DNA of 64,000 bases from Escherichia phage 92CQ. The translations under genes and the position numbers were made by a program. The notes under the pieces were generated by a model, which saw only the letters and a program-made list of their open reading frames with translations, had not been told where the DNA came from and ran no database searches. Positions 4,097-6,873 of this stretch are shown here, piece after piece; within the stretch, counting starts at the first letter, position 1; every line of letters starts with the position of its first letter. The DNA lies in sequence record PV682554.1. One strand, 5' to 3'.

Positions 4097-4172
4097 GGTT
4101 CCATAGCTCACTGACGAGAGCGCACACCTCATAAGTGTCGAGGGCAGGGATTGTAACCCTGGGGAACCACCA
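4097..4172 (+). tRNA. tRNA-Met (anticodon CAT), CCA encoded
   Basis: Manual fold: acceptor GGTTCC/GGAACC, D-stem GCTC/GAGC, anticodon loop CTCATAA, T-stem CAGGG/CCCTG with unusual T-loop ATTGTAA. Confidence 0.55.
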
Positions 4173-4203
4173 TTTAAAAGGAGGTGCTATGCATCTCCTA
4201 TAT

Positions 4204-4289
4204 GCAAGTGTGGTGGAATTGGTGATACACATTGTGCTTAAAACGCAACGCTTAAATGATTGAGGGTTCGAATCCCTCCACTTGCACCA
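4204..4289 (+). tRNA. tRNA-Leu (anticodon TAA), type II with long variable arm
   Basis: Acceptor GCAAGTG/CACTTGC, anticodon loop CTTAAAA, T-arm GAGGGTTCGAATCCCTC, 3' ACCA. Confidence 0.6.
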
Positions 4290-4331
4290 ACCTAGGCTTC
4301 AATTTAAATAATATTTTTAGTAAAAAATATC

Positions 4332-4360
4332 TTGACATCTACTTAGTTTTTTGTTATAGT
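4332..4360 (+). promoter_or_regulatory. sigma70-like promoter with extended -10 (TTGACA-N17-TATAGT)
   Basis: TTGACA 4332-4337, TG-n-TATAGT 4355-4360; lies between tRNA genes. Confidence 0.45.
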
Positions 4361-4371
4361 TATTGTGAAAA

Positions 4372-4453
4372 CGGGGTGTATCTCACCTGACTTCTAATCA
4401 GGCGTTAACCGAGTAATTGGAGTATGCAGGTTCGAATCCTGTCACCCCGACCA
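4372..4453 (+). tRNA. atypical tRNA-like gene (anticodon loop reads TCT, Arg-like; no recognisable D-arm)
   Basis: Perfect 7-bp acceptor CGGGGTG/CACCCCG, canonical T-arm CAGGTTCGAATCCTG and 3' ACCA, perfect stem-loop CCTGA-CTTCTAA-TCAGG, but only 7 nt between acceptor and that stem and 23 nt after it. Confidence 0.4.
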
Positions 4454-4471
4454 AAAAGTTTTAAAAACTAC

Positions 4472-4501
4472 TTGACAAGCAAGATAGTTTTATGTTAGAG
4501 T
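4472..4501 (+). promoter_or_regulatory. sigma70-like promoter with extended -10 (TTGACA-N18-TAGAGT)
   Basis: TTGACA 4472-4477, TG-t-TAGAGT 4496-4501. Confidence 0.45.
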
Positions 4502-4516
4502 TAAAATATGATAACG

Positions 4517-4606
4517 GGAAGGTAGGGCGCAGCGGTGCGCAACCAGGTTTGAACCCTGGCCCATTGTAGCGATACGGTGATGGTTCGACTCCATTATCTT
4601 CCTCCA
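4517..4606 (+). tRNA. tRNA-Ser (anticodon TGA), type II
   Basis: Acceptor GGAAGGT/ATCTTCC (one G-U), perfect anticodon arm CCAGG-TTTGAAC-CCTGG, long variable arm, T-loop TTCGACT, 3' TCCA. Confidence 0.6.
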
Positions 4607-4618
4607 AATTCAACTAGG

Positions 4619-4796
4619 AAAAGATTCCGGTTGTTTTGAATAATTAAGAACGGTAGATTGGTGAAATGGTAGCCACAACAGTTTGCTAAACTGTCGTCGG
4701 AAACGGCGTGTAGGTTCAAGTCCTACATCTACCGCCAAGTTATCTTTAATGTAGCTTGTACTCTTACTTTAGCAGAGTAAATCTTCGGCAAGTGGC
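4619..4796 (+). repeat. 178-bp direct repeat, copy 1 (contains tRNA-Ser GCT)
   Basis: Read as identical base-for-base to 4924-5101 (offset 305 bp). Confidence 0.8.
4652..4737 (+). tRNA. tRNA-Ser (anticodon GCT), type II
   Basis: Acceptor GGTAGAT/ATCTACC, anticodon arm ACAGT-TTGCTAA-ACTGT, variable arm CGTCGGAAACGGCGT, T-arm GTAGGTTCAAGTCCTAC, 3' GCCA. Confidence 0.6.
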
Positions 4797-4923
4797 TGAA
4801 TTATAAAACTATTGGACAGGTTGTTACCGGAGTTAAGATTGTAGATAATAAAGTTGTTTATGAGTATTCTAATCTTCAACAATCTGAAGATGGTAAAAAT
4901 ATTCGTATGGTAAAAGCAGAACA

Positions 4924-5101
4924 AAAAGATTCCGGTTGTTTTGAATAATTAAGAACGGTAGATTGGTGAAATGGTAGCCACAACAGTTTGCTAAACTGTC
5001 GTCGGAAACGGCGTGTAGGTTCAAGTCCTACATCTACCGCCAAGTTATCTTTAATGTAGCTTGTACTCTTACTTTAGCAGAGTAAATCTTCGGCAAGTGG
5101 C
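4924..5101 (+). repeat. 178-bp direct repeat, copy 2 (contains duplicate tRNA-Ser GCT)
   Basis: Perfect copy of 4619-4796. Confidence 0.8.
4957..5042 (+). tRNA. tRNA-Ser (anticodon GCT), duplicate copy
   Basis: Identical sequence to 4652-4737, inside repeat copy 2. Confidence 0.6.
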
Positions 5102-5168
5102 AGTAACCACTTTACCGATATCCCATAGTCAAGTGCCGCAAACACTGGCTATTTTAAAGATAATTTAT

Positions 5169-5244
5169 ACATCGTTAGCTTAGTTGGTAGAGCAAGGGGC
5201 TTTTAACTCCAAGGTCGAAGGTTCGAATCCTTCACGATGTACCA
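5169..5244 (+). tRNA. tRNA-Lys (anticodon TTT)
   Basis: Acceptor ACATCGT/ACGATGT, D-arm GCTTAGTTGGTAGAGC, anticodon loop CTTTTAA, T-arm GAAGGTTCGAATCCTTC, 3' ACCA. Confidence 0.6.
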
Positions 5245-5249
5245 AACAC

Positions 5250-5336
5250 GTAGGTATCGCATAGAGGCAATTGCTGGAGACTGTAAATCTCTTGCCCTTC
5301 GGGGCTTCGTTGGTTCGAGTCCAACTACCTGCACCA
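5250..5336 (+). tRNA. tRNA-Tyr (anticodon GTA), type II
   Basis: Acceptor GTAGGTA/TACCTGC, anticodon loop CTGTAAA, long variable arm, T-arm GTTGGTTCGAGTCCAAC, 3' ACCA. Confidence 0.6.
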
Positions 5337-5343
5337 AATTAAA

Positions 5344-5428
5344 GATGGATTGGCCTAGTGGTTGGGCGACGGACTGTTAATCCGTGAACGAAAGTTCTAG
5401 CAAGGTTCAAATCCTTGATCCATCGCCA
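5344..5428 (+). tRNA. tRNA-Asn (anticodon GTT) with unusually long variable region
   Basis: Acceptor GATGGAT/ATCCATC, anticodon arm ACGGA-CTGTTAA-TCCGT, extra hairpin GAAC-GAAA-GTTC in variable region, T-arm CAAGGTTCAAATCCTTG, 3' GCCA. Confidence 0.5.
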
Positions 5429-5582: not shown

Positions 5583-5605
5583 ATTTTAACTCTAAAGGAG
5601 TGTAT

Positions 5606-5929
5606 GTGACAGAAAAAGAGTTAGAGAAATATTTTAATATCAATGTTTTCGATGGTTTTGATGACATTGAAGATGTTGAAAGATATTATGAAGTAGAGTT
5701 AGATAAGGATAACATTGTAATTCTTTCTGCCACTTATGATTGTGCATATTATGAAGGTGAATCTCACGTTTATTTTTATGATATGAAAACATCTTTGTTT
5801 TATGAAGTACACGCATATCATTGTTCTTGCTATGGCTTAGAAGGTCAATGGGAACCTGAAGAAATAGGTGATTTGGACTTTACTGTTGCATATCTAAACA
5901 GACGTGGTGCATCTACTATTTTAAAATAA
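5606..5929 (+). CDS. hypothetical protein embedded in tRNA array
   Basis: ORF track 5600-5929; start moved to GTG at 5606 for 6-nt spacing from AAGGAG RBS. Confidence 0.5.
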   Translation: MTEKELEKYFNINVFDGFDDIEDVERYYEVELDKDNIVILSATYDCAYYEGESHVYFYDMKTSLFYEVHAYHCSCYGLEGQWEPEEIGDLDFTVAYLNRRGASTILK

Positions 5930-5933
5930 ATAT

Positions 5934-5963
5934 CAAAAGCCTCTTGACAAAGGGGCTAATAAT
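5934..5963 (+). promoter_or_regulatory. sigma70-like promoter with extended -10 (TTGACA-N18-TAGAGT)
   Basis: TTGACA 5934-5939, TG-t-TAGAGT 5958-5963; same ATGTTAGAGT element as at 4491-4501. Confidence 0.45.
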
Positions 5964-5984
5964 ATGTTAGAGTAATATTGTTAA

Positions 5985-6059
5985 GCGGGTATAGTGTTAA
6001 TGGTAGCATATGAGGTTTCCACCCTCCAGGTGCAGGTTCAAGTCCTGTTACTCGCTCCA
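5985..6059 (+). tRNA. tRNA-Gly (anticodon TCC)
   Basis: Acceptor GCGGGTA/TACTCGC (one G-U), anticodon loop TTTCCAC, T-arm GCAGGTTCAAGTCCTGT, 3' TCCA. Confidence 0.55.
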
Positions 6060-6157
6060 AGATTATTTAAATGGAATCGCTAGAGAAAATTTCTCTTTTC
6101 GCTCATGGTTTTCTCCTTCAAACTCTAGCGGTTCTTTTTAAGTGATTTTAGTTTTAT

Positions 6158-6232
6158 TGGAGATTAGCCTAGTGGGAAGGCAACGGCCTTTGAAGTCGTG
6201 ATGACTAGGTTCGATTCCTAGATCTCCAGCCA
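6158..6232 (+). tRNA. tRNA-Gln (anticodon TTG)
   Basis: Acceptor TGGAGAT/ATCTCCA, anticodon arm ACGGC-CTTTGAA-GTCGT, T-arm CTAGGTTCGATTCCTAG, 3' GCCA. Confidence 0.6.
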
Positions 6233-6239
6233 AGATTTA

Positions 6240-6315
6240 CAGTGCGTAGCGCAGTTGGTAGCGTGGGAGCTTTGGATGCTTCAGGTCGCAGGTTCGAGTC
6301 CTGCCGCACTGACCA
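6240..6315 (+). tRNA. tRNA-Pro (anticodon TGG)
   Basis: Acceptor CAGTGCG/CGCACTG, D-arm GCGCAGTTGGTAGCGT, anticodon loop TTTGGAT, T-arm GCAGGTTCGAGTCCTGC, 3' ACCA. Confidence 0.6.
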
Positions 6316-6320
6316 AATTT

Positions 6321-6395
6321 GCAGAGATAGCTGAGACGGATTAGTGCTACCCTGAAAAGGTAGAAAGGATGGATCGTTACCATCTCTCTGCACCA
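6321..6395 (+). tRNA. tRNA-Phe (anticodon GAA)
   Basis: Acceptor GCAGAGA/TCTCTGC, perfect anticodon arm CTACC-CTGAAAA-GGTAG, T-stem GATGG/CCATC with atypical T-loop ATCGTTA, 3' ACCA. Confidence 0.55.
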
Positions 6396-6472
6396 AATAA
6401 CACCATCCAAGGAGTAGACTTGGTTAACTGTCAATAGCACATTGAGGCTTCTTACAGTGGTGTACTTATTAT

Positions 6473-6557
6473 GGCTAAGTGGTGGAATGGTATACACGAT
6501 ACGCTTAGAACGTATTGCCCCAAGGGATTGTGAGTTCGAGTCTCACCTTAGCTACCA
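6473..6557 (+). tRNA. tRNA-Leu (anticodon TAG), type II
   Basis: Acceptor GGCTAAG/CTTAGCT, perfect anticodon arm ATACG-CTTAGAA-CGTAT, long variable arm, T-arm GTGAGTTCGAGTCTCAC, 3' ACCA. Confidence 0.6.
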
Positions 6558-6571
6558 AATTACTACAGAAT

Positions 6572-6651
6572 GCGCGGGATAGAGGAGTCTGGTCGTCCTC
6601 GCCAGTTTCATATGCTGGAGATCGTAGGTTCAAATCCTACTCCCGCCTCCA
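6572..6651 (+). tRNA. tRNA with CAT anticodon (Met, initiator or Ile2 type; not resolvable by eye)
   Basis: Anticodon arm CCAGT-TTCATAT-GCTGG, T-arm CGTAGGTTCAAATCCTAC, 3' TCCA; 1-72 position mismatched. Confidence 0.45.
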
Positions 6652-6709
6652 ATAAATACCTCCCTTCTGGTGTAATGATTAAGTTACATTGACACTTCAA
6701 GGAACTCAT

Positions 6710-6792
6710 AGCCGGGTAGATTTAAAAGAGTATGGTACTCAATATGGCTCCAAACCATAGATCAAGGGGTTCGATTCCTCACCTTGCTGCCA
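6710..6792 (+). tRNA. atypical tRNA-like gene (anticodon loop reads CCA, Trp-like) with enlarged D region; possible pseudogene
   Basis: Perfect stem-loop TATGG-CTCCAAA-CCATA, T-loop GGTTCGATTCC, 3' GCCA, but acceptor pairing AGCCGGG/CCTTGCT has a mismatch and about 9 extra nt precede the D-stem. Confidence 0.3.
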
Positions 6793-6797
6793 ATTAT

Positions 6798-6873
6798 TGT
6801 GGTATCGTACAGATGGTTAGTACACTCGACCGATAATCGAGAAACAACGGTTCGACTCCGTTTACCACGACCA
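6798..6873 (+). tRNA. tRNA-Ile (anticodon GAT)
   Basis: Acceptor TGTGGTA/TACCACG, perfect anticodon arm CTCGA-CCGATAA-TCGAG, T-arm AACGGTTCGACTCCGTT, 3' ACCA. Confidence 0.55.

Follow-up and report, generated by a model that had tools for sequence, protein, structure and literature searches.

The 64,000-nucleotide stretch of Escherichia phage 92CQ (PV682554.1) that we have analyzed, called the window in what follows, carries between positions 4097 and 6873 a dense array of tRNA genes, and the question raised by this locus is what the phage gains from it. Our answer is that the array is probably the tRNA operon cluster of a virulent phi92-like coliphage, which supplies tRNAs for the codons of the phage and also keeps spare tRNAs for the moment when tRNA-targeting immunity is active. 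The array itself is already known, since it is annotated in phi92-like records. The added value of this analysis is the finding of two conserved non-canonical tRNA genes inside it, one with a UCU anticodon (4372-4453) and one that is Trp-like (6710-6792).

ARAGORN, run over the entire window, called 16 tRNA genes in the array, all of them in the + strand (Table 1), and together with the two atypical genes they give a total of 18 tRNA-type genes. The Rfam covariance model RF00005, with a gathering score of 29 bits, supported 14 of the 16 ARAGORN genes with 47.7-68.9 bits and gave 40 bits to the UCU gene; its threshold was missed by 4097-4172, 4517-4606, and 6729-6789. The 3' CCA is encoded by the 16 ARAGORN genes and by both atypical ones, and a D hairpin is present in all the tRNA genes of the array except 4372-4453. 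These results bear out a preliminary description of the locus, made from the letters alone, which had counted about 18 tRNA genes, two of them atypical, interleaved with at least four TTGACA/extended -10 promoters. All the anticodons that it listed are exactly those called by ARAGORN, most of the predicted tRNAs are supported by the covariance model, the promoters are found at 3763, 4332, 4472, and 5944, and the two atypical genes exist and are conserved with compensatory changes.

The preliminary description had also proposed that the array adds codon capacity for the A/T-rich codons of the phage, and codon usage agrees with this proposal. We compared 56 long phage open reading frames (ORFs) (18,278 codons) with 50 E. 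coli ORFs, all called by length. The codons that are Watson-Crick cognates of the phage anticodons are enriched in the phage ORFs (mean log2 phage/E. coli ratio of +0.49, versus -0.44 for the rest; Mann-Whitney p = 0.009). Among the enriched codons are ACA (4.2x), CUA (3.8x), AGA (3.0x), AUA, GGA, and CCU (2.7x each), UAU (2.65x), AAU and CCA (2.2x each), and UUA (1.9x), and all of them have a phage tRNA able to read them by Watson-Crick or G34-wobble pairing, except CCU and possibly AUA. The window contains no Arg tRNA besides the atypical UCU gene, which alone would serve the AGA codon. About half of the phage codons (0.50) are readable by phage tRNAs. No such enrichment is seen for the phage codons of Lys (AAA, 1.2x), of Met and Trp (0.97x each), and of Phe (UUC, 0.75x).

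According to the mechanism that we favor, transcription from the four strong promoters of the sigma-70-type extended -10 class would give three or four polycistronic units, which would all end at a single terminator (7265-7289), and the host RNase P and 3' processing enzymes would then release 18 CCA-ended tRNA-type RNAs. Most of these RNAs would add decoding of A/U-ending codons whose use in the phage is two to four times that in E. coli (ACA, CUA, AGA, GGA, UUA, CCA, UCA, and CAA), the reading of AGA relying solely on the non-canonical tRNA-Arg(UCU)-like RNA. The Lys-Tyr-Asn-Thr block, the initiator-like Met, the Phe, and the Trp-like genes are not explained by codon bias, and they are most likely a spare set that would sustain translation once the host tRNAs have been destroyed. 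The threats would be the AriB nuclease of PARIS (for Lys, Thr, and Asn), the PtuAB proteins of retron-Eco7 (for Tyr), and PrrC-type enzymes (for Lys), and the possible routes of escape would be substitutions in the anticodon stem (Lys and Thr), an added arm (Asn), and abundance due to strong promoters (Tyr). Gene content, structures, covariation, codon statistics, and differences from the host sequences are what the analysis shows; the expression of the array, the charging of its tRNAs, their resistance to nucleases, and the benefit for the phage are inferred.

The idea of tRNAs as a counter-defence has precedents. Mutations in the anticodon loop of phage tRNAs have been put forward as a general hypothesis of nuclease evasion (PMC10264068). 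The tRNA-Lys of T5 acts against PARIS (PMC11464382), the tRNA-Tyr of T5 acts against retron-Eco7, and a phage tRNA-Lys acts against PrrC170; the rescue by tRNA-Tyr is due to its overexpression from a strong phage promoter and not to an insensitive variant (PMC11555353). The AriB nuclease cuts E. coli tRNA-Lys(UUU) as well as tRNA-Thr(UGU) and, more weakly, tRNA-Asn(GUU), between positions 40 and 41; this cleavage is abolished by U39A and reduced by A41C and U16C, and PARIS is neutralised by the Lys, Thr, and Asn tRNAs of T5 together (PMC12409363).

The Lys, Tyr, Asn, and Thr genes of the window are contiguous (5169-5582), and three of them carry the anticodons of host targets of AriB (Lys UUU, Thr UGU, and Asn GUU). 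We compared their anticodon stem-loops with those of the E. coli K-12 isoacceptors. The arm of the phage tRNA-Lys (AGGGG CUUUUAA CUCCA) has the same loop as that of E. coli (GUUGA CUUUUAA UCAAU), and its positions 39-41 are C39-U40-C41, versus U39-C40-A41 in the host. The arm of the phage tRNA-Thr (GUUGC CUUGUAA GCAAC) also has the host loop (ACUGA CUUGUAA UCAGU in E. coli); it carries G39, as in T5 tRNA-Thr (GUUGC CUUGUAA GCAUC), in place of the U39 of the host, and C40 and A41 as in the host. The arm of the phage tRNA-Asn (ACGGA CUGUUAA UCCGU) differs from the host one (GCGGA CUGUUAA UCCGU) only at position 27, and in tRNA-Tyr both the loop CUGUAAA and positions 39-41 are the same in phage and host. 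Substitutions at positions 39-41, where AriB determinants lie, are found in Lys and Thr and in neither Asn nor Tyr. The tRNA-Asn has in addition a class-II-like extra arm, with a 4-bp stem and a GAAA loop, and this stem covaries in four phage genera (GAAC/GUUC, GUUC/GAAC, GAGU/ACUC, and GAGA/UCUC). Judging from these sequences, Lys and Thr, the two main targets, are compatible with AriB evasion, and, by analogy with the published case, Tyr fits a mechanism of abundance from a strong promoter. That the extra arm of Asn may hamper AriB is speculation.

The second claim of the preliminary description, that the set includes known nuclease targets and may act as nuclease-insensitive replacements, stands only in part. 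What stands is the presence of the targets of AriB (Lys, Thr, and Asn) and of retron-Eco7 (Tyr), together with the stem changes of Lys and Thr; what the sequence supports is specific to PARIS. The comparison of the anticodon loops, which the preliminary description had suggested as a check, gave no substitution in Lys, Tyr, Asn, or Thr. Since the Lys, Tyr, and Asn loops are identical to those of the host, the sequence gives no ground to predict that nucleases reading the loop or the anticodon, such as PrrC and colicin E5, would spare these tRNAs; for these two nucleases, the claim does not hold at the sequence level. The differences from the host in the anticodon loop considered by van den Berg et al. 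(2023) are absent from Lys, Tyr, and Asn, and are found in Gly, Gln, Pro, Phe, both Leu, both Ser, and Ile (C33). In short, the preliminary description made a correct but ordinary observation, and its interpretation was half right and already published, the counter-defence idea being plausible (PMC10264068, PMC11464382, PMC11555353, PMC12409363).

Several points weigh against our reading of the array. The loops of Lys (CUUUUAA), Tyr (CUGUAAA), and Asn (CUGUUAA) are those of E. coli, the Tyr stem is host-like at positions 39-41, and Asn keeps U39, C40, and C41, so that every position relevant for AriB is host-like in this tRNA. The phage tRNA-Lys retains U16-U17, while T5 tRNA-Lys has C16, a change that impairs AriB. 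A T5 tRNA-Lys in which the E. coli cleavage site was restored stays uncleaved (PMC12409363), which indicates that the stem positions are not the whole determinant and that predictions made from them are weak. The Met-CAT gene at 4097 fails the covariance model, and the codon statistics draw on no more than 64 kb of phage sequence and 49 kb of E. coli sequence, the latter rich in ribosomal-protein genes, which exaggerates the host bias. Finally, the literature searched yielded no expression, processing, charging, or phenotype data for Justusliebigvirus, the genus of the phage studied here, and nothing linking this genus with tRNA-targeting systems.

A simpler explanation is that the array serves codon compensation purely and that the overlap with nuclease targets is incidental. 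The strong match between phage-enriched codons and phage anticodons speaks for it, and so does the composition of the set, which is a superset of the eight T4 tRNA specificities (Arg-UCU, Ile-CAU, Thr, Ser, Pro, Gly, Leu, and Gln). This explanation does not account for Lys, whose AAA codon stands at 1.2x and for which six host genes were seen, nor for Met, Phe UUC, and Trp, none of which is enriched in the phage. It also leaves aside that Lys, Tyr, Asn, and Thr are contiguous, that the stem changes hit AriB determinants, and that the array of Phapecoctavirus lacks Lys and Tyr yet keeps the rest, so that these two genes behave as an accessory module. We therefore consider pure codon compensation rather unlikely, and the reading of codon supply plus a spare set remains the one that we prefer.

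The most unusual member of the array is the UCU gene. RF00005 aligned 4372-4450 plus CCA with the D arm deleted, leaving 4 nt where 15 D-arm positions are expected, so that the D hairpin that a canonical cloverleaf has between positions 10 and 25 is absent from 4372-4453. A BLAST search with 4368-4455 against the GenBank phages gave near-full-length matches with 80-87% identity in unrelated groups, i.e., Felixounavirus, Sugarlandvirus (T5-like), the Asteriusvirus jumbo phages, a vibriophage, Proteus phage Mydo, and Serratia phage Kamaji, nearly all of them unannotated or labelled "tRNA-OTHER". The family comprises more than 200 GenBank phages and about 70 IMG/VR contigs. The IMG/VR pattern scan, which left the stems and the candidate pairing positions free, provided 70 contigs with 45 distinct 94-nt sequences, all in one register. 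In these 45 sequences, 94.8% of the cells of the proposed structure are paired, compared with 64% in shuffles (0/500) and 33-45% when the 3' partners are slid.

The D hairpin is replaced in this RNA by a helix of another connectivity. The triplet CUC at 4382-4384 (C-N-N after U8-A9-U) pairs with GAG at 4411-4413 (N-N-G), which lies 7 nt 3' of the anticodon arm. This D-like helix is paired in 135 of 135 cells, versus 13-41% in slid controls, and its pairs vary: CG in the 45 sequences at the first position; UA in 31, AU in 10, and GC in 4 at the second; CG in 36, UA in 5, and GC in 4 at the third. Double changes amount to 23, when 4.4 were expected. The GAG strand is followed by the invariant UAAUUGGAGUA, which resembles the D loop of a tRNA-Arg with G18-G19-A20; the D-loop-like element of the window gene is AAUUGGAGUA, whose GGA is invariant in the 45 sequences, and E. 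coli argU carries AGUUGGAUA at the corresponding D loop. The anticodon loop CUUCUAA is also invariant. All the modules of a tRNA would thus be present, in the order acceptor, then a "3'-type" D strand, the anticodon arm, a bulge of 7 nt, a "5'-type" D strand, the D loop, and the T arm. Taking into account standard tRNA geometry, this order would be compatible with a coaxial stack of the D-like helix on the anticodon stem and with a contact between the D loop and the T loop.

Other structures were tried for the UCU RNA and rejected. RNAalifold, applied to the alignment of 45 sequences, gave the acceptor, anticodon, and T stems and missed the 3-bp D-like helix, which was tested by pair counts. 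The hairpin CCGA/UUGG, proposed in the "variable" region by the single-sequence minimum free energy fold, is paired in 75.0% of the cells versus 75.7% in shuffles, with one double change, and extending the D-like helix by one more pair (columns 19-44) fails in 33 of the 45 sequences, which are unpaired there. An IMG/VR pattern scan for the same architecture with the anticodon left free yielded, among the matches listed, further UCU members only.

The missing hairpin recalls D-armless mitochondrial tRNAs, for instance the metazoan tRNA-Ser(AGY/UCU), whose connector pairs 3' of the anticodon arm, extending the anticodon helix, and whose anticodon is in some cases UCU (PMC7609411). Of the features that define this type, the missing hairpin is the only one in common. 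The UCU RNA has 82 nt including CCA, a full T arm, and the D-loop-like AAUUGGAGUA with GG and A20, and it shows neither the short connector nor the reduced size nor the organellar translation of the mitochondrial type. Moreover, it is found essentially in phages that infect bacteria, where EF-Tu and ribosomes lack an adaptation to armless tRNAs.

The E. coli arginyl-tRNA synthetase (ArgRS) recognizes A20, C35, U36, and the discriminator base. A20, C35, and U36 are present in the UCU gene, and the discriminator is A or G in most of the members that encode CCA, several members having other bases. The members of enterobacterial phages do encode CCA. The canonical tRNA-Arg(UCU) of T5 and the UCU gene of the window have the acceptor stem and the T arm in common, which points to descent from a normal tRNA-Arg. 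The element lies inside tRNA arrays in 70 of the 77 loci sampled, and at most 2 of these also contain a canonical Arg-UCU. We tentatively propose, as a reading that may well prove wrong, that the UCU RNA is a phage-specific functional class of tRNA-Arg with its D-stem partner and D loop transposed 3' of the anticodon arm. Such an RNA would still adopt an L shape and be a substrate of ArgRS, its backbone following another path at the D and anticodon stems. Its spread among the unrelated families of Felixounavirus, Justusliebigvirus, Sugarlandvirus, Asteriusvirus, and vibriophages, often beside HNH homing endonuclease genes, would reflect selection for an AGA-decoding molecule that escapes recognition by the tRNA-targeting nucleases of the host.

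Alternatively, the UCU RNA might have no part in decoding and be a tRNA mimic instead, sequestering a protein that binds tRNAs, such as a nuclease, a modification enzyme, or ArgRS; it might also be an element of processing or regulation. Its connectivity is unlike that of any tRNA known to function on the bacterial ribosome, a protein decoy too would keep the anticodon loop and the D-loop-like element invariant, and the data on AriB overexpression hint at viral tRNAs as competitive inhibitors (PMC12409363). A mimic would leave unexplained that a canonical Arg-UCU almost never co-occurs with it in the 77 loci, that it is the only reader of AGA where this codon is enriched 3.0x, and that it has the ArgRS elements A20, C35, and U36, a mostly purine discriminator and, in enterobacterial phages, an encoded CCA. 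For these reasons, we judge the mimic unlikely.

As for the origin and spread of the UCU gene, only 4 true members were found among 185,579 species-representative genomes, all of them on contigs of metagenome-assembled genomes; the other 20 matches of that search for a bacterial origin were rejected as chance. HNH homing endonuclease genes adjoin the UCU gene in Sugarlandvirus Spivey (locus L017, 1591-2100), Serratia phage Kamaji (L021, 1584-2147), and a Felixounavirus (L016, 1-421), and these neighbors are a possible vehicle for its spread. The literature searched, which left most subscription journals outside its scope, contained no description of this family or of D-armless or non-canonical phage tRNAs.

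The second atypical gene, at 6710-6792, reaches 22.9 bits in RF00005 (6729-6789) and is called by ARAGORN only at a relaxed threshold, with the anticodon CCA. Its acceptor stem has 8 bp, starts with A-U, and contains one CxU mismatch; it is followed by a connector of 10 nt, a D stem of 5 bp that is extended to 6 bp in two relatives and has a UGG loop, the anticodon loop CUCCAAA, a 4-bp T stem, and a G discriminator before CCA. A1-U72, G73, and the CCA anticodon constitute the identity set of the E. coli tryptophanyl-tRNA synthetase. Acceptor/T geometries of 8/4 or 9/3 occur in tRNA-Sec and in the allo-tRNAs. The Trp-like gene resembles them in its 8-bp acceptor, its 4-bp T stem, and its D stem of up to 6 bp with a 3-nt loop, and differs in its CCA anticodon, the absence of a long variable arm, and the 10-nt connector between acceptor and D stem. 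Homologues are found in all the Justusliebigvirus genomes (never annotated), in Klebsiella phages KP13-26 and KP2025, in Hafnia phage Zyzzx, and in one IMG/VR contig. In an alignment of 4 sequences, which makes this evidence thinner than that for the UCU family, 95.5% of the cells are paired, versus 57% at most in slid controls, and 7 pairs are changed on both sides in 3 lineages.

It might also be thought that the phage itself degrades or inactivates the host tRNAs during shut-off and that its own divergent tRNAs are spared, a model of self-inflicted damage that was reportedly put forward by Yang and co-workers in 2021 in Cell Systems for a vibriophage. The identity between the 16 ARAGORN tRNAs and the host isoacceptors is indeed no higher than 60-80%, nearly all the stems being recoded. 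Among the neighboring ORFs checked beside the array, none could be recognized as a tRNA nuclease, and, with about half of the phage codons read by phage tRNAs, the host tRNAs are indispensable, which makes this model very unlikely. That 4372-4453, 6710-6792, and 4097-4172 are decaying pseudogenes or annotation noise, as one could suspect because most GenBank records leave the atypical genes unannotated or call them "hypothetical tRNA" or "tRNA-OTHER" and because two of the three miss or fall under the Rfam gathering score, can hardly be right in view of the four helices that the UCU family keeps through compensatory changes in 45 sequences of unrelated phages with an invariant anticodon loop, the near-consensus promoter that the UCU gene of the window has for itself, and the pairing and double-sided changes of the Trp-like RNA, a counter-evidence that covers 4372 and 6710 and not 4097-4172, where there is too little diversity.

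Some of the other tRNAs of the array are also divergent. The CAT gene at 4097-4172 has zero match to RF00005, a D loop without GG, and the T loop AUUGUAA; its similarity is 0.68 to E. coli elongator tRNA-Met, 0.68 to tRNA-Ile2, and 0.63 to T4 tRNA-Ile(CAU), so that it could be either Met or Ile2, being equally close to both. In this gene and in tRNA-Phe, A54 and U58 replace T54 and A58, i.e., the reverse-Hoogsteen pair is swapped; in the phi92 annotation, tRNA-Phe is labelled as a pseudogene. The second CAT gene, at 6573-6651, has the C1xC72 mismatch and the 5' CGCGGG of E. coli tRNA-fMet, is closest to T5 tRNA-fMet, and lacks the three G-C pairs of the anticodon stem. The Ser-TGA gene at 4517-4606 is matched by the tRNA-Sec model alone (35.3 bits versus a gathering score of 47) and shares 86% identity with T5 tRNA-Ser(UGA). 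The tRNA-Ile(GAT) at 6798-6873 has C33 instead of the near-universal U33, in the loop CCGAUAA, which is also present in 6 distinct phage Ile genes of the sampled loci; C33 occurs in 12 of 453 distinct phage tRNAs. Finally, tRNA-Pro(UGG) (6240-6315) and tRNA-Leu(UAG) (6473-6557) carry A37, whereas their E. coli isoacceptors carry G37, the site where TrmD makes m1G37, and thus the phage tRNAs would not be expected to depend on that modification.

Like the clusters of T4 and T5, the array consists of many same-strand tRNA genes in a virulent phage, interleaved with promoters and small ORFs. As in the T5 region (24 tRNAs plus tRNA-like stable RNAs), the genes form a large block on one strand, with strong promoters, small ORFs, and, in relatives, HNH genes in between. 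The Thr anticodon stem-loops coincide in 16 of 17 positions, and the Ser(UGA) identity and the acceptor and T arm of Arg(UCU) are further common features. T5 belongs to Demerecviridae and the window to Stephanstirmvirinae, and the window lacks His, Asp, Glu, Val, Ala, and Cys. Its tRNA-Lys has C39/U40/C41 plus U16, where T5 has A39/C41, its Asn combines the host stem with the extra arm, and its Arg is non-canonical. T5 has anti-PARIS, anti-retron, and anti-PrrC tRNAs. The T4 cluster (8 tRNAs plus the species 1 and 2 RNAs) has its eight specificities represented in the window once the UCU gene and one of the CAT genes are included, and likewise has structured non-tRNA RNAs between its tRNAs. 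The spacers of the window have zero sequence similarity to T4 rnaC/rnaD and to the T5 stable RNAs. T4 counters PrrC through repair by Pnk and Rnl1, and not with a spare tRNA-Lys.

From end to end, the region shares 97-98% identity with Escherichia phages Eryne, phi92, PaulScherrer, and EmilieFrey and with some 50 others; these belong, like the phage of the window, to Justusliebigvirus (Stephanstirmvirinae, phi92-like) and include phages of the BASEL collection. The arrays of phi92 (NC_023693 gt002-gt016), Eryne, and BASEL Bas60-62 have the same locus and order, and they differ in that the window carries a duplication of Ser(GCT) with a period of 305 nt; the UCU and Trp-like genes are unannotated in their records. 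Each of the two repeats carries tRNA-Ser(GCT) plus flanks, and the duplication, which removes the ATG of a small ORF similar to phi92 gp111, is missing from phi92 and Eryne, indicating a recent event specific to the genome of the window. The tRNA-Lys of phi92 (locus L002, 2681-2756) is set apart from that of the window by the change G31U; this puts a U31xC39 mismatch where the anticodon loop begins to close, at its base, and ARAGORN then cannot name the anticodon. Related genera share the backbone order with gains and losses of genes; the array of Klebsiella phage KP13-26 has extra Asp, Glu, Arg-ACG, Ala, and Val, and that of Phapecoctavirus phAPEC8 lacks Lys and Tyr and contains a canonical Arg-UCU. 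The tRNA-Thr(UGU) (5507-5586 in the window) is 95-96% identical to that of Felixounavirus-like contigs (L016, L042, L052, L066, and L074) that also carry the UCU gene, and these sequences suggest that tRNA genes are exchanged between unrelated phage families. Four records named "Campylobacter phage A145/A150/C3/A110a" (MG065645, MG065639, MG065656, and MG065689; 146 kb) are 99-100% identical to the array, and their Campylobacter host label looks doubtful.

Table 1. Features of the tRNA array of Escherichia phage 92CQ and its flanks (positions in the window)
Feature	Position	Strand	Basis
Sigma-70 promoter-like site, TTGACA-18-TAAGAT with TG (extended -10), in front of the first unit (small ORF, Met-like gene, Leu)	3763..3792	+	
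88-aa ORF, PHROG 15056, ends 7 nt 5' of first tRNA	3823..4089	+	
tRNA(CAT), deviant; specific to Justusliebigvirus	4097..4172	+	ARAGORN
tRNA-Leu(TAA)	4204..4289	+	ARAGORN, RF00005
Promoter-like TTGACA-17-TATAGT with TG, 11/12 consensus, best promoter match of the region; ends 11 nt 5' of UCU gene	4332..4360	+	
Non-canonical tRNA-Arg(UCU)-like gene, ACCA end	4372..4453	+	RF00005, covariation
Promoter-like TTGACA-18-TAGAGT with TG, 15 nt 5' of Ser-TGA	4472..4501	+	
tRNA-Ser(TGA)	4517..4606	+	ARAGORN
Two 178-nt direct repeats, 100% identical (4619-4796, 4924-5101), period 305	4619..5101	+	
tRNA-Ser(GCT) copy 1	4652..4737	+	ARAGORN, RF00005
tRNA-Ser(GCT) copy 2	4957..5042	+	ARAGORN, RF00005
Structured spacer Ser(GCT)-Lys, z -4.0	5043..5168	+	Fold
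tRNA-Lys(TTT)	5169..5244	+	ARAGORN, RF00005
tRNA-Tyr(GTA), class II	5250..5336	+	ARAGORN, RF00005
tRNA-Asn(GTT), extra arm, G73	5344..5428	+	ARAGORN
tRNA-Thr(TGT)	5508..5582	+	ARAGORN
107-aa ORF within array, PHROG 8792, phi92 gp112 homologue	5606..5929	+	
Promoter-like TTGACA-18-TAGAGT with TG, 11 nt 5' of Gly	5944..5973	+	
tRNA-Gly(TCC)	5985..6059	+	ARAGORN, RF00005
Structured spacer, long hairpin, z -5.0	6060..6157	+	Fold
tRNA-Gln(TTG)	6158..6232	+	ARAGORN, RF00005
tRNA-Pro(TGG)	6240..6315	+	ARAGORN, RF00005
tRNA-Phe(GAA), T loop AUCGUUA	6321..6395	+	ARAGORN, RF00005
tRNA-Leu(TAG)	6473..6557	+	ARAGORN, RF00005
tRNA(CAT), initiator-like	6573..6651	+	ARAGORN
Non-canonical tRNA-Trp(CCA)-like gene	6710..6792	+	Relaxed ARAGORN, fold, homologues
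tRNA-Ile(GAT), C33	6798..6873	+	ARAGORN, RF00005
89-aa ORF, PHROG 8729, closes last unit	6985..7254	+	
Intrinsic-terminator-like hairpin plus T run; sole convincing + strand terminator past array	7265..7289	+	

The promoter-like pattern TTGACA-N17/18-TGnTAnnnT occurs 8 times in the 64 kb of the window, when 0.42 would be expected, and 4 of these sites lie here, in a stretch of 2.2 kb, 3 of them ending 11-15 nt upstream of a tRNA-type gene. The Pfam and PHROG matches of the small ORFs of the array give no informative function. Two of the spacers appear to be structured. That at 5043-5168 has a closed cloverleaf-like multi-branch fold, is conserved in Phapecoctavirus, and shows compensatory changes in at least one hairpin (GUGG/CCAC versus AUGG/CCAU in phi92). 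A possible identity for it is a small stable RNA of the sort known from the annotated tRNA regions of T4 and T5. The hairpin core of 6060-6157 is conserved across three genera, including KP13-26 and phAPEC8, and its minus strand reads AAGGAG-N7-ATG followed by an 8-codon ORF (MSEKRNFL*), so that it may be either an RNA element or an antisense mini-ORF. The z-scores of spacers 6396-6472, 6652-6709, and 6874-6985 are not significant. The Asn-Thr spacer at 5429-5507 (z -2.7) contains tRNA-like pieces, i.e., GCUUG/CAAGC ends and CUAGAA/UUCUAG and GUAGG-N8-CCUAC hairpins, and may be a decayed tRNA.

Directly upstream of the array, there is a gene encoding a phosphoribosyl pyrophosphate (PRPP) synthetase-like protein (Pribosyltran/Pribosyl_synth; 651-1544), followed by a nicotinamide phosphoribosyltransferase gene (1616-3349), predicted to form an NAD+ salvage pair. 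NAD+ salvage modules counter NAD-depleting defences, and thus two "resupply" modules are adjacent at this locus. Farther away, the sign of the GC skew flips near 46 kb and the long ORFs change from the + to the - strand at about 45000-47000, which marks a boundary between modules whose transcription diverges or converges.

Taken alone, the array brings little that is new, since it is annotated in phi92-like phages and both roles proposed for it are in the literature. It does lead to predictions for a widely used group of phages (phi92 and BASEL phages Bas60-62), in which the Lys-Tyr-Asn-Thr block should decide the sensitivity to PARIS, retron-Eco7, and PrrC, and the Asn arm and the stem variants of Lys and Thr offer natural probes of AriB specificity beyond T5. 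Automated tRNA annotation systematically overlooks the conserved UCU gene in hundreds of phage genomes, including those of Felix O1-like and phi92-like therapeutic candidates. If our tentative reading is true, the UCU gene would encode the first tRNA without a D hairpin used on the bacterial ribosome. Should its RNA be charged and decode AGA, a rewired D-arm connectivity would be acceptable to bacterial ArgRS, EF-Tu, and ribosomes, which would be of relevance for tRNA structural biology, for tRNA engineering, and for the arms race over tRNA-targeting immunity.

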